64,000 nt of DNA, from assembly GCF_058153355.1 (NCBI RefSeq), contig NZ_CM177019.1. The stretch is one strand, 5' to 3'. This document shows, piece by piece, positions 5,381-63,170 of the stretch. Made by a program: the position numbers and the translations under genes. Position 1 is the stretch's first letter; each line of letters opens with the position of its first letter. The notes under the pieces were generated by a model. The model was not told the origin of the DNA. It searched no databases and worked only from the letters and a program-made list of their open reading frames with translations.

Positions 5381-7181
5381 GTGCAAACCTTTCAAGCCGA
5401 TCTTGCCATTGTAGGCGCCGGTGGCGCGGGATTACGTGCTGCAATTGCTGCCGCGCAGGCAAATCCAAATGCAAAAATCGCACTAATCTCAAAAGTATAC
5501 CCTATGCGTAGCCATACCGTAGCTGCAGAAGGGGGCTCCGCCGCTGTCGCGCAGGATCATGACAGCTTCGAATATCACTTTCACGATACAGTAGCGGGTG
5601 GCGACTGGTTGTGTGAGCAGGATGTCGTGGATTATTTCGTCCACCACTGCCCAACCGAAATGACCCAACTGGAACTGTGGGGATGCCCATGGAGCCGTCG
5701 CCCGGATGGTAGCGTCAACGTACGTCGCTTCGGCGGCATGAAAATCGAGCGTACCTGGTTCGCCGCCGATAAAACCGGCTTCCATATGCTGCACACGCTG
5801 TTCCAGACCTCTCTGCAATTCCCGCAGATCCAGCGTTTTGACGAGCACTTCGTACTGGATATTCTGGTTGATGATGGTCATGTTCGCGGCCTGGTGGCAA
5901 TGAACATGATGGAAGGCACGCTGGTGCAGATCCGTGCTAACGCGGTCGTTATGGCTACCGGCGGTGCAGGTCGCGTTTATCGTTACAACACCAACGGCGG
6001 CATCGTTACCGGTGACGGTATGGGTATGGCGCTAAGCCACGGCGTTCCGCTGCGTGACATGGAATTCGTTCAGTATCACCCAACCGGTCTGCCAGGTTCC
6101 GGTATCCTGATGACCGAAGGCTGCCGCGGTGAAGGCGGTATTCTGGTCAACAAAAATGGCTACCGTTATCTGCAAGATTACGGCATGGGCCCGGAAACTC
6201 CGCTGGGCGAGCCGAAAAACAAATATATGGAACTGGGTCCACGCGACAAAGTTTCTCAGGCCTTCTGGCACGAATGGCGTAAAGGCAACACCATCTCCAC
6301 GCCGCGTGGCGATGTAGTTTATCTCGACCTGCGTCACCTCGGCGAGAAAAAACTGCATGAACGTCTGCCGTTCATCTGCGAACTGGCGAAAGCGTACGTT
6401 GGCGTCGATCCGGTTAAAGAACCGATTCCAGTACGTCCGACCGCACACTACACCATGGGCGGTATCGAAACCGATCAGAACTGTGAAACCCGCATTAAAG
6501 GTCTGTTCGCCGTCGGTGAATGTTCCTCTGTTGGTCTGCACGGCGCAAACCGTCTGGGCTCCAACTCCCTGGCGGAACTGGTGGTCTTCGGTCGTCTGGC
6601 CGGTGAACAAGCGACAGAACGTGCAGCAACTGCCGGTAATGGCAACGAAGCGGCAATTGAAGCGCAGGCTGCTGGCGTTGAACAACGTCTGAAAGATCTG
6701 GTTAACCAGGATGGCGGCGAAAACTGGGCGAAGATCCGCGACGAAATGGGCCTGGCTATGGAAGAAGGTTGCGGTATCTACCGTACGCCGGAACTGATGC
6801 AGAAAACCATCGACAAGCTGGCTGAGCTACAGGAACGCTTCAAGCGCGTGCGCATCACCGACACCTCCAGTGTGTTCAACACCGACCTGCTCTACACCAT
6901 TGAACTGGGCCACGGTCTGAACGTTGCTGAATGTATGGCGCACTCTGCAATGGCACGTAAAGAGTCTCGCGGCGCGCACCAGCGTCTGGACGAAGGTTGC
7001 ACCGAGCGTGACGACGTCAACTTCCTCAAACACACCCTCGCCTTCCGCGATGCTGATGGCACTACTCGCCTGGAGTACAGCGACGTGAAGATTACTACGC
7101 TGCCGCCAGCTAAACGCGTTTACGGTGGCGAAGCGGATGCAGCCGATAAGGCGGAAGCAGCCAATAAGAAGGAGAAGGCGA

Positions 7182-57992: not shown

Positions 57993-58871
57993 TTACACCA
58001 AATTTACAGAGAAGATTTCCTCGACCATTGCCCCCGCCAGACGCTGCGCTGAACAGAGTCGTGGCATCCCCAGTGCGACAGTTTGCCAGCGTTGGGTCAC
58101 TGACCAGCAAACGGGTTGTTTATCTGCCGTGGTCCACTTTCCCAGCCAACTTAAAAAATCAGCATGATCCCCACCCGTCGGGGCGGTTGAATAGGTAAAC
58201 CACTGATGGTAATAGTGACGAGTGGTCGTTGCCGCATTAATACTCTCTGCCAGATGTTGTGTCGCTTTCACGCGCAAATCATCAAGCAACAACGCCACCG
58301 CTTGCGGGCTTCCCAGACGGCAGGCATCGCCAAATGCCCCCCAGCGCAACTCCTCCAGAACGATAAAACAGCGCCCAGGCAACGACCAGGCGTTATACGC
58401 CCCAGCACGCCAGCGGGTAAAAATTTGCTCACTCTGATCACCGGCCTGTACCAGTAATCCTCGTTGCGTTAACGCCTTTTCCTTCCAGCGACAACGGGCT
58501 GAAAACAACTCATACAAGGCGGCAATTTGCTGGGGGAGCTCCGGGAAAGCAGAGTGCTGGCGGTGATCCATTTTTTGCAACAGCGCCAAATGTTGCGCGA
58601 TCTGCGTCAGCGCCAGATGACCGGGATCCAGCATCGACGCCAGTTTTTCCACCAATGTCAGACGCAGGCTAAGCGGCGCATTTAACATGCCGCCGTTCGT
58701 CCATGCCTGAAGCTGCACGCGCGCAAGAAGTTCCTGCATCAGTCGTTCACGAAACTGCTGCTGATGGGCTTGTGGATGGCGGGCATCATCGCCCTGCGCC
58801 AGATCCACTAAAAAGCGGGAATGAATCGACTCCAGCACGCGACCGGGGCCGTCCAGTAACGTCTTGGTCAA
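57993..58871 (-). CDS. yjcZ: Uncharacterized protein YjcZ (292 aa)
   Basis: ORF MTKTLLDGPGRVLESIHSRFLVDLAQGDDARHP…; 4-bp overlap with crfC stop suggests co-transcription. Confidence 0.85.
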   Translation of the reverse strand: MTKTLLDGPGRVLESIHSRFLVDLAQGDDARHPQAHQQQFRERLMQELLARVQLQAWTNGGMLNAPLSLRLTLVEKLASMLDPGHLALTQIAQHLALLQKMDHRQHSAFPELPQQIAALYELFSARCRWKEKALTQRGLLVQAGDQSEQIFTRWRAGAYNAWSLPGRCFIVLEELRWGAFGDACRLGSPQAVALLLDDLRVKATQHLAESINAATTTRHYYHQWFTYSTAPTGGDHADFLSWLGKWTTADKQPVCWSVTQRWQTVALGMPRLCSAQRLAGAMVEEIFSVNLV

Positions 58872-61096
58872 TATCGTTCTGCCGTGAAAAGTGTTTGAAT
58901 ATCATCGCGTAACAGCTGAGCGTCGATGTAAATCCAGCCATGAGTCATCACAGTCTGCTGCAATTGCTGCTGCATCAGCCTGACCACCGATTCATTTTGT
59001 TGACGCAGAGCCAGACTTTCGCGTAAACGCGTCTGTAATTCCGTCAAACATGAAGCGAACTCAGCGAAAAAAGTATTCATGCCTGCCGTAACAGATTCAT
59101 CGACCTGCTCTGCCAGAACTTTAGCCATTTGTTGGCAATAAAGATCGACTTCTGCGCTTAATGCTCGTTGCAACGCACTGTAATCAACCGTCTCTATCGG
59201 GGATTTCTCATTTCCCCGTCCCCAGTCGGGCTGATTCAACCAGCGCGAAAAAGTCTCACGCACAACGCCTAAACGCGTGCTCTGCTCGTCCATTGCGTCC
59301 TGGCGCGAAATGACTTCACTGAACAGCTGGCGAGTGTTGAAGTGGGGAACTGCGCCGTGAAAAACAGGAAAATGAAACCCAGGACGAAACCCTGACTCGC
59401 TCAATTCCATTTTGACTTGTTGCTCAATGGGCCGAATAACATCGGTTAACACCCGGCAAAGAGTGGATTCAAGCTCGGCAAAACGCAGCGTAAAGTCGCG
59501 ACTGATGGTGTTCTGCGCCGTCTGTAACAGTGTCTCACAGCAGGTACGAATCTCGCTTAATGACCCCGAATCATCCTGAAACAACGCGGCTAACTGGGCA
59601 TTCACCGCATCTTGCTGTTGACGCAGAAAGAGGTTGGCGGAGGTCAGGGCCAGCTCGATTTCATGTTTAATCTCGCCGCTCACCTGAGCCTGATTGAGTT
59701 GAAATAGCTGCAAACTTTCTTCGATCTGGTGGATATTTTGCCGCAATTGTTCACAAGCGACGTTTAACCCGTGCGCACGAAAATCCAGGTATTCCCGCGC
59801 CTGCTGCGCGTAATTCAACAGTTTATGCGCGGCAGATCGCAGAGCATACAACGAGGCGTTAGCGTAAGCGGCATGAAGCAACGCCTGAATTGGCTGGGCG
59901 AACAGCGAATCTTCCCACAACTGATCGGCAGCATGACGAATATGTTCGAGGTCCGCCAGGTCGGCATGACGCCAGCGCCTGCCGAGCGCGGCATGGGCAA
60001 AATCCTCCACCCAGCGTTGTTGCTCTGGCGCGGGTAACTTACCGTTGTTGGCTAACTCATTACGCGCCCGATTCGCCAGGTAGCCCCACATCGACGACAC
60101 TGGAAATATCTGCTGTGGCGTAATACAGCCTTTCATCAGCGTCCCGGAAATCAGTGCCCGCACCTGGTCGGCGTCGTCACTGTTACGATCCTGTTGATCG
60201 AACTTATTGACCAGCACATACAGCGGCACCGATTGCCCCACCGCCAAAATCGCCTCACGGACCTCTTCATCGGAGATCGATTTCAGTTGCGTATAATCCA
60301 GCACCGCCAGTACCGCCGAGGCGCGAGCCAGCTGCTGGTTAAGCATTTTTTGCAGATGCGGTTGCCCGGCTTCATTTGGCCCAGGGGTATCCAGTAACGT
60401 CAACTGACCGGGATAACTCTCCAGCCCCGCCAGATGGACAAACTCCACTTCAATCACGGGAATATGCTCAATGGCGGCGTAAGCAGAAAAAGGAAAATCG
60501 ACGTCCAGCGCCTTCGCCAGTCGCACCAAATCATTCAAACTTTTCAGACAATGAAAAATAGGCTGGGCACCCAGATAATATTTTTCGAAAGCGACGCCAT
60601 TTTCGATCCGCAGCATAAGCGCACGCATATCTTTATCTATTTCCAGCACATCGGTCAGATGCTTAATATCGCAGTCACGCAGGCGCTGTTGTAATTGTTG
60701 AATTAAACAGTCGATTGGCGCGACATGTGAAAAATGCAGTACCGGTTCTTTTTGCCCGGGCGTATGGCGAATAAGCGTCGGCAGCGCAGTCATTGGGCGA
60801 TTGCGATTAGGCAGAACCTCCGTACCAACAATGGCATTAATGGTGGTTGATTTCCCTGCTTTCATAGTACCGACAATCGCCAGCACCATTTCCAGTCGGG
60901 AAATTTTACGCAACTCATTATTCAGCATCGCGTGACGTTCGGCGATATTAGGCTGACTCCAGGGTAAAGCCAGTTGTGGCGCATCGTCTCCGGGTACAGA
61001 GAGAGGCATTTTTTCCAGTAACTGCAACTGTTGGCGAGAAAGCTGTAACAGGCGTTCAGCCTCCTGACTTAACTCATACAGGGTCTGTGTGTACAT
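58868..61096 (-). CDS. crfC: Dynamin-like GTPase CrfC (YjdA)
   Basis: 742-aa ORF with P-loop GTMKAGKST and DTPG motif; MYTQTLYELSQEAERLLQLSRQQLQLLEKMP…. Confidence 0.93.
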   Translation of the reverse strand: MYTQTLYELSQEAERLLQLSRQQLQLLEKMPLSVPGDDAPQLALPWSQPNIAERHAMLNNELRKISRLEMVLAIVGTMKAGKSTTINAIVGTEVLPNRNRPMTALPTLIRHTPGQKEPVLHFSHVAPIDCLIQQLQQRLRDCDIKHLTDVLEIDKDMRALMLRIENGVAFEKYYLGAQPIFHCLKSLNDLVRLAKALDVDFPFSAYAAIEHIPVIEVEFVHLAGLESYPGQLTLLDTPGPNEAGQPHLQKMLNQQLARASAVLAVLDYTQLKSISDEEVREAILAVGQSVPLYVLVNKFDQQDRNSDDADQVRALISGTLMKGCITPQQIFPVSSMWGYLANRARNELANNGKLPAPEQQRWVEDFAHAALGRRWRHADLADLEHIRHAADQLWEDSLFAQPIQALLHAAYANASLYALRSAAHKLLNYAQQAREYLDFRAHGLNVACEQLRQNIHQIEESLQLFQLNQAQVSGEIKHEIELALTSANLFLRQQQDAVNAQLAALFQDDSGSLSEIRTCCETLLQTAQNTISRDFTLRFAELESTLCRVLTDVIRPIEQQVKMELSESGFRPGFHFPVFHGAVPHFNTRQLFSEVISRQDAMDEQSTRLGVVRETFSRWLNQPDWGRGNEKSPIETVDYSALQRALSAEVDLYCQQMAKVLAEQVDESVTAGMNTFFAEFASCLTELQTRLRESLALRQQNESVVRLMQQQLQQTVMTHGWIYIDAQLLRDDIQTLFTAERY

Positions 61097-61497
61097 AGAA
61101 AATTTTTCCTTAAAGCAAATTTTATTACTTTTATTTAGCCAGATTGTTTTTGAGTTCTGTTTTCGGCTTTTATAATTACTGCAAGAAATAATTTTATATT
61201 TAGAGTGTTGTTTTTTATTAGAATAAATAACGTCTTCCGATACGTTTAAAATGTCAGAAAGATAAAAATATCATTTGAATTAAAAAAAGAACAAGTAGAG
61301 CATTAACCTTATCTTAAATAATAAATGGAGGCAAAAAGATTATTTTCTTTTTGCGTTTCCTTTCAAATGAAAACGATCGTCGTCTAAAATCAGCAGTACC
61401 CCCGACAAACTCAGGGATTTTGTGTATAATTGCGGCCTTTTTCGGCAATCTGCCGTTTTTTGGCGCTTTTGCCCTGCTGACTTTTGAGGAAATCCAC

Positions 61498-61833
61498 ATG
61501 TCATTACCACACTGCCCAAAATGCAACTCCGAATACACCTACGAAGATAACGGCATGTACATCTGCCCGGAATGTGCCTACGAATGGAACGACGCAGAAC
61601 CTGCACAGGAAAGCGATGAACTGATCGTTAAAGATGCAAACGGCAATCTTCTGGCTGATGGCGACAGCGTTACCATCATTAAAGATCTGAAGGTGAAAGG
61701 TAGCTCTTCGATGCTGAAGATCGGTACCAAAGTGAAAAACATTCGCCTGGTTGAAGGCGACCACAACATCGATTGCAAAATCGACGGTTTTGGTCCGATG
61801 AAACTGAAATCTGAGTTTGTGAAAAAGAACTGA
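61498..61833 (+). CDS. phnA: Zinc-ribbon protein PhnA (YjdM), 111 aa
   Basis: [30 protein letters not shown]… with CxxC…CxxC zinc ribbon; ORF-track frame trimmed to this Met. Confidence 0.93.
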
Positions 61834-61865
61834 TTGTATTGCTCAATGTAATATTGGCACATGAT

Positions 61866-63170
<1,305 letters not shown>

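Follow-up and report, generated by a model that had tools for sequence, protein, structure and literature searches.

The crfC/rdcA-rdcB operon of Escherichia coli feeds DgcE-dependent c-di-GMP signalling and nucleoid partition. The E. coli promoters silenced by H-NS (proU, bgl, hlyE and the set antagonised by SlyA/LeuO) have in common a low-GC stretch of 200-250 bp, dense in A/T runs, that is located directly upstream, and a stretch of this kind is likewise present upstream of crfC. For crfC-yjcZ the likeness to this set extends to published H-NS binding, derepression by hns deletion and induction by SlyA: H-NS was found to bind the crfC promoter region, with crfC mRNA "markedly increased" in an hns deletion strain (Taniguchi et al., PMC6374313, Fig. 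5B), and consensus elements of FliA, H-NS and DnaA were annotated in the 300 bp upstream of crfC (PMC6374313, Supplementary Figure 6); crfC-yjcZ is tabulated as H-NS-bound in Kahramanoglou 2011 and Oshima 2006 (Table 2 of Curran et al., PMC5797941), and was 2.6-fold up on SlyA overexpression (PMC5797941). H-NS silencing of crfC-rdcB as the explanation of the AT-richness is already published, and the proposal of an earlier note on this DNA that nucleoid-associated proteins bind here is borne out by these K-12 data (PMC5797941, PMC6374313), to which nothing new is added in the present analysis.

The window, i.e. the whole 64-kb stretch of DNA that was analysed, is part of an E. coli chromosome. 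Within it, crfC (yjdA/rdcA; 58868-61096, minus strand) and yjdM (phnA; 61498-61833, plus strand) are separated by a spacer of 401 bp as given by the ORF ends; crfC begins with a start codon read from the complement of 61094-61096, and yjdM with the ATG at 61498-61500, so that the earlier placement of the spacer borders was exact. The genes of this part follow one another in the order proP, rdcB (yjcZ) and crfC (all on the minus strand), yjdM (plus strand), a REP/naRNA4 unit, an IS element and yjdN. A 601-bp query covering 61000-61600 matched 5413 of 5426 complete E. coli genomes with 97-100% identity. The K-12 equivalent of the spacer (NC_000913.3, 4326735-4327134) is 98.3% identical to the sequence of the strain studied here, and neither PGAP nor the curated NC_000913.3 record (K-12) has an annotated feature inside it. 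The region is an ordinary, largely already-described divergent regulatory spacer; its features are compiled in Table 1.

Table 1. Position, strand and basis of the features in and around the spacer between crfC and yjdM (numbering of the 64-kb window).
Feature	Position	Strand	Basis
crfC/rdcA - yjdM/phnA divergent intergenic region	61097-61497		ORF ends and genome matches
AT-rich core with dense A/T runs, probable H-NS platform silencing crfC-rdcB	61097-61350		composition, tract excess; published K-12 data
Conserved block I, adjoining the crfC ATG; Shine-Dalgarno AAGGA (61107-61111), -10-like TAAAAT (61119-61124)	61107-61137	-	cross-genus comparison
Conserved block II, GTAATTATAAAAGCCGAAAA on the crfC strand; may serve as a regulator site or belong to the crfC promoter	61160-61179	-	cross-genus comparison
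Conserved block III, TATCTTAAATAAT	61310-61322		Escherichia and Citrobacter only
Perfect 9-bp inverted repeat, GCAAAAAGA-N6-TCTTTTTGC	61331-61354		terminator-like in scan
Sigma70-like TTGAAA-16-AATAAT toward crfC, unproven	61339-61366	-	10/12 match
Probable yjdM promoter (-35 CCGACA, 17-bp spacer, -10 TATAAT)	61402-61430	+	10/12 match, conservation
DnaA box TTATACACA with a full consensus match, overlaps the yjdM -10	61421-61429	-	consensus scan
Leader hairpin (CGGCAATCTGCCG + TTTTTT), beginning ~6 nt past the predicted transcription start of yjdM	61443-61461	+	terminator-like scan
yjdM Shine-Dalgarno GAGGA, spaced 7 nt from the ATG (61498)	61486-61490	+	direct reading

The spacer has a GC content of 30.9% compared with 49.9% for the 64-kb window. 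This low GC content is unevenly distributed (22.8% in 61097-61350, 44.6% in 61351-61497), and the segment 61096-61345 (22.8% GC) is the lowest-GC 250 bp in the entire window. The spacer contains 22 A/T runs of at least four bases versus 7.5 ± 2.4 in shuffles of the same composition (an approximately threefold excess); none of the other 401-bp stretches that were sampled in the window reaches this number. The two extended A/T tracts quoted in the earlier note are indeed present, at 61120 and 61265, and the excess of such tracts over the shuffles is real and non-random. The designation of the whole spacer as a leader is a misnomer: most of the AT-rich DNA is located upstream of both likely transcription starts, unless the minus-strand site at 61366-61339, which is confined to Escherichia, is used.

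Nine genera (Escherichia, Citrobacter, Yokenella, Leclercia, Scandinavium, Kosakonia, Cronobacter, Franconibacter and Mangrovibacter) have the dynamin-like gene and yjdM separated by a long spacer of 346-803 bp that is low in GC (31-45%); the flanking genes have 52-56% GC where measured. The AT-rich core differs among the genera in sequence and length, its GC content being low throughout. According to this comparison, the AT-rich spacer is an old and ancestral trait of Enterobacteriaceae and not imported DNA, and its freely varying central part fits an H-NS platform that depends on composition and not on a specific sequence. The locus deviates from the H-NS-silenced promoters named above, as the arrangement is ancestral to many genera of the Enterobacteriaceae instead of recently acquired, the AT-richness is limited to the spacer (crfC itself has ~50% GC), and no high-affinity motif of the Lang type was found. 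Such a motif is not obligatory for the binding of H-NS to long AT-rich DNA. At a threshold of two mismatches or fewer, the spacer contained 0 matches to the H-NS motif TCGATAAATT (Lang 2007), with 1.43 expected from shuffles. The flanking genes are differently arranged in some genera outside these nine: Klebsiella and Pluralibacter are devoid of crfC-rdcB and carry proP directly divergent from yjdM across a spacer of 544-721 bp, and thus the crfC-rdcB pair looks like an insertion or a deletion between proP and yjdM; in Serratia, yjdM follows miaB.

These features are, with good confidence, best accounted for by a shared control region composed of two modules, one serving crfC(rdcA)-rdcB(yjcZ) leftward and the other yjdM(phnA) rightward, whereby the H-NS evidence derives from K-12 and not from the strain of the window. 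The AT-rich module (~61097-61350) would constitute the platform over which H-NS oligomerises and holds the transcription of crfC-rdcB low, a repression that antagonists such as SlyA would lift; the 85 bp nearest to crfC would provide the ribosome-binding site together with an as yet unmapped core promoter or regulator site. The yjdM module (~61400-61497) would comprise a near-consensus sigma70 promoter and a leader of ~60 nt that opens with a small stem-loop. For both modules we infer the start sites, the bases touched by H-NS and the roles of the conserved blocks. The region illustrates H-NS silencing of a chromosomal, non-foreign operon; its significance is slight, and the only practical gain would consist in the exact mapping of the crfC promoter, the predicted FliA promoter having been rejected.

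The probable sigma70 promoter of yjdM is the best-supported element of the region, its placement being well supported by inference from the plus-strand consensus scan (10 of 12 positions matching) and from a comparison of 16 upstream sequences out of 11 genera, i.e. the nine genera listed above plus Klebsiella and Pluralibacter. A TATAAT-like -10 element was present in 16 of 16 sequences (CATAAT in Mangrovibacter), with four of its six positions invariant; the CCGACA -35 element was kept in most of them, including Klebsiella and Pluralibacter, where proP is the divergent neighbor. Escherichia and Citrobacter hardly differ over the entire segment 61417-61491, which runs from the -10 element to the ribosome-binding site, and the GAGGA Shine-Dalgarno sequence is common to Escherichia, Citrobacter, Leclercia, Kosakonia and Klebsiella. 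Transcription is predicted to start near 61437, which would result in a ~60-nt leader of ordinary GC content. The site resembles canonical sigma70 housekeeping promoters in its CCGACA-17-TATAAT arrangement ~67 nt before the ATG, its GAGGA sequence and its short 5' UTR; it differs from them in the unusually conserved leader that opens with a small GC hairpin and a U-run, the start from which this leader is counted being a predicted one. The DnaA box that overlaps the -10 element is probably incidental, its TGTG half outside the promoter being present only in Escherichia and Citrobacter.

The supplement texts of genome-wide start and 3'-end studies, among those reachable, contained no entry for yjdM, yjdA or crfC; the promoter placements rest on consensus, conservation and gene arrangement. 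The assumption that the spacer holds divergent promoters is sustained for yjdM by the 10/12 match and its conservation and for crfC by the gene arrangement, while a convincing core promoter of crfC was not found. In the consensus scan of both strands, the yjdM site is a good match on the plus strand, and the only good match on the minus strand (61366-61339) is specific to Escherichia.

By gene arrangement, the crfC promoter must necessarily be located within the spacer. The N-terminus and the start codon of the dynamin-like protein (CrfC) are conserved across genera, and the 85 bp upstream of crfC contain two deeply conserved blocks (61107-61137 and 61160-61179). In block I, ATTTGCGTTAAGGAAAG and TAAAAGTAATAAAAT are retained from Escherichia through Mangrovibacter; in block II, GCCGA is present in most genera. 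Direct reading of block I revealed no -35 match, a usable sigma70 -35 element was found in neither of the two blocks, and no convincing -35/-10 pair was present in the crfC-proximal block. The TTGAAA-16-AATAAT site farther upstream is kept only within Escherichia, and its -10 element lies in the loop of the perfect inverted repeat; if used, it would yield a crfC leader of ~235 nt that is rich in AT. The inverted repeat itself has a fold z of -4.8 on the plus strand and -5.7 on the minus strand; in other Escherichia species it persists with degraded outer pairs, and Citrobacter lacks it. Because the conserved blocks lack a usable -35 element and the only good minus-strand match is confined to Escherichia, the crfC core promoter was left unplaced.

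The conservation of the crfC-proximal 85 bp (GTAATTATAAAAGCCGAAA ... TAAAAGTAATAAAATTTGCGTTAAGG, in at least nine genera, with no recognisable sigma70 or sigma28 promoter) would also be consistent with a site for an activator yet to be described; this, and/or a function of the yjdM stem-loop as an RNA stability or attenuation element, would add undescribed cis-regulatory elements to the region, which we regard as unlikely. An activator site in the 85-bp block, if real, could explain the indirect FliA/FlhDC dependence of crfC/rdcA. A scan of the spacer with regulator consensus sequences gave no matches for IHF and Fis and, for CRP, the Pho box and Lrp, matches not above those in shuffles; an FlhDC half-site read by eye was a partial match only.

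Similarly improbable is a role of helically phased A-tracts whose curvature would act as a functional architectural element that activates or represses both promoters. According to the wedge model, curvature in the spacer is greatest at 61425, where the peak of 17.5 deg/turn is the fourth-highest in 64 kb and belongs to the top 0.2% of the window, and a second peak of ~13.6 deg/turn is predicted at 61320-61340 (98.9th percentile); the model was checked with only one positive and one negative control sequence (phased, 24.5 deg/turn; unphased, 1.0 deg/turn). The main peak coincides with the yjdM promoter and leader, whereas the quoted A/T tracts are situated in segments of average predicted curvature. 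The power of AA/TT dinucleotides is maximal at a period of 10.25 bp, a height that was reached by 3.7% of the shuffles in the 10-11.5 bp band but by 21% over all periods, and the peak is absent from the AT-rich core; likewise, the Rayleigh test of the tract centres gave p ~0.05 at the single period of 10.25 bp, with no signal at 10.0, 10.5 or 11 bp. Outside the conserved blocks, the positions of the tracts are not kept between genera. The phasing claimed in the earlier note is therefore reduced to a marginal signal of the whole spacer that is not significant over all periods and is lost in the AT-rich core; intrinsic curvature is weakly supported by the predicted peaks at 61425 and ~61330, although these do not fall on the quoted tracts and the periodicity is marginal.

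That crfC-rdcB is driven by a FliA (sigma28) class-3 promoter in block II, which would make the spacer part of the cis elements of the flagellar regulon, is improbable. Block II resembles such promoters in its -10-like sequence GCCGAAAA (61160-61167, minus strand), which agrees in 7 of 8 positions with the FliA -10 consensus GCCGATAA, and is the same as the -10 of the tsr FliA promoter in the table of PMC4183435; GCCGA is retained in most genera. A promoter of this kind was predicted by Zhao 2007, as cited in PMC6374313, and Table 2 of PMC4183435 shows yjdA RNA dropping from 111 to 11 upon deletion of fliA. The block differs from class-3 promoters by the lack of a -35 element TAAAGTTT at the right spacing: the corresponding position, 11 bp upstream of the -10 element, is occupied by TCTTGCAG (2 of 8 positions matching), and the full FliA pattern with five mismatches or fewer was found nowhere in the scan. 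Furthermore, the FliA ChIP-seq site was mapped only inside yjdA, where it drives yjcZ, the upstream promoter having been "incorrectly predicted" according to the authors (PMC4183435), and the RpoF genomic SELEX site is located inside yjdA as well (PMC5493296). According to PMC4183435, the functional FliA promoter of rdcB/yjcZ (TAAAGTTCTGGCAGAGCAGGTCGATGAA) is located within the 3' part of crfC. The peptide AKVLAEQVDES, which is encoded at the published site, was found in the CrfC protein of the window (region ~59100-59130).

On the yjdM side, the leader hairpin is a lead of uncertain significance. In the terminator-like pattern found by the scan, a 5-bp stem (CGGCA-AUC-UGCCG) is followed by U6, and it is rather doubtful that hairpin and U-run represent a conserved cis-regulatory RNA, either a promoter-proximal attenuator/terminator or an mRNA-stabilising 5' stem-loop. 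Besides the near-invariance of the whole leader between Escherichia and Citrobacter, such a function would be in line with compensatory-looking variants of the stem in Leclercia (CGACA/TGTCG), Kosakonia (AGGCA/TGCCT) and Klebsiella (CGGCT/AGCCG), and with C. amalonaticus S646, which is devoid of both the stem and the U-run. The covariation of the stem was, however, not above that of shuffles: 3 pairs were changed on both sides versus 1.9 ± 0.8 in shuffles, 101 of 500 shuffles scored at least as high in covariation, and 59 of 500 attained the same percentage of paired positions. In addition, the stem has only 5 bp, the fold z of the leader is only -1.6, Klebsiella and Cronobacter have a decayed U-run, Rfam gave no match, and the accessible supplement text of the 3'-end mapping study has no entry for yjdM.

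The spacer does not hold a known RNA family or a small-protein gene. A scan of 60500-62300 against Rfam 15 (E <= 1) gave nothing in the spacer, the only hits being those of naRNA4 at 61871-61947. A hidden small gene, either an sRNA that would end at the 61331-61354 hairpin or a 20-codon ORF (61326-61388), is very improbable: the strongly non-random fold of the hairpin (z -4.8 and -5.7), two promoter-like plus-strand sites upstream of it (61245-61274) and the readable ATG of the ORF in the window are set against an AT-rich hairpin that is followed by GTTTCCTTTC instead of a U-run, the loss of its outer pairs in other Escherichia species and its absence in Citrobacter, the lack of an Rfam hit and of an annotation in the curated K-12 record, and the ATA codon of K-12 in place of the ATG; the stretch of this ATG-initiated ORF is, moreover, not alignable in Citrobacter. 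The statement that the spacer contains no ORF of 60 aa or more is correct for ORFs wholly inside it, but mechanical ORFs of 74, 88 and 160 aa begin there and run into yjdM. The longest, a 160-aa in-frame upstream extension of yjdM, is non-coding because Citrobacter carries two 1-nt insertions in this part, and the conserved promoter is located inside it. Extended forms of yjdM are nevertheless predicted by many gene callers. YjdM is 85-95% identical across Enterobacterales; public gene calls vary from 108 to 190 aa compared with the usual 111 aa; this variable length represents a systematic annotation inconsistency arising from different choices of upstream start.

The DNA adjoining the spacer beyond yjdM showed some further features. 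Just 3' of yjdM, the REP unit at 61871-61947 corresponds to Rfam naRNA4 (RF02564; 97 bits, plus strand), i.e. the REP325 locus, which PMC4550694 and a 2026 preprint deal with; in the latter, yjdM mRNA was produced from a T5 promoter, and nothing on the native promoter is contained. The 326-aa ORF at 62141-63121 (plus strand) encodes the transposase of IS621, a bridge-RNA recombinase (full-length match to PDB 8wt6_A, E 4.5e-218); the REP cluster that separates yjdM from yjdN harbors the element, which neither K-12 nor strain TCM3e1 carries at this position. In E. coli AVS0747 (NZ_CP124467.1, ~5999-6013), a rearrangement breakpoint is located ~12 nt upstream of the yjdM ATG, and a truncated cupin gene together with the fadK/etf region is found in place of the whole spacer and the crfC side; since the spacer is replaced, yjdM of this strain has lost its conserved promoter.
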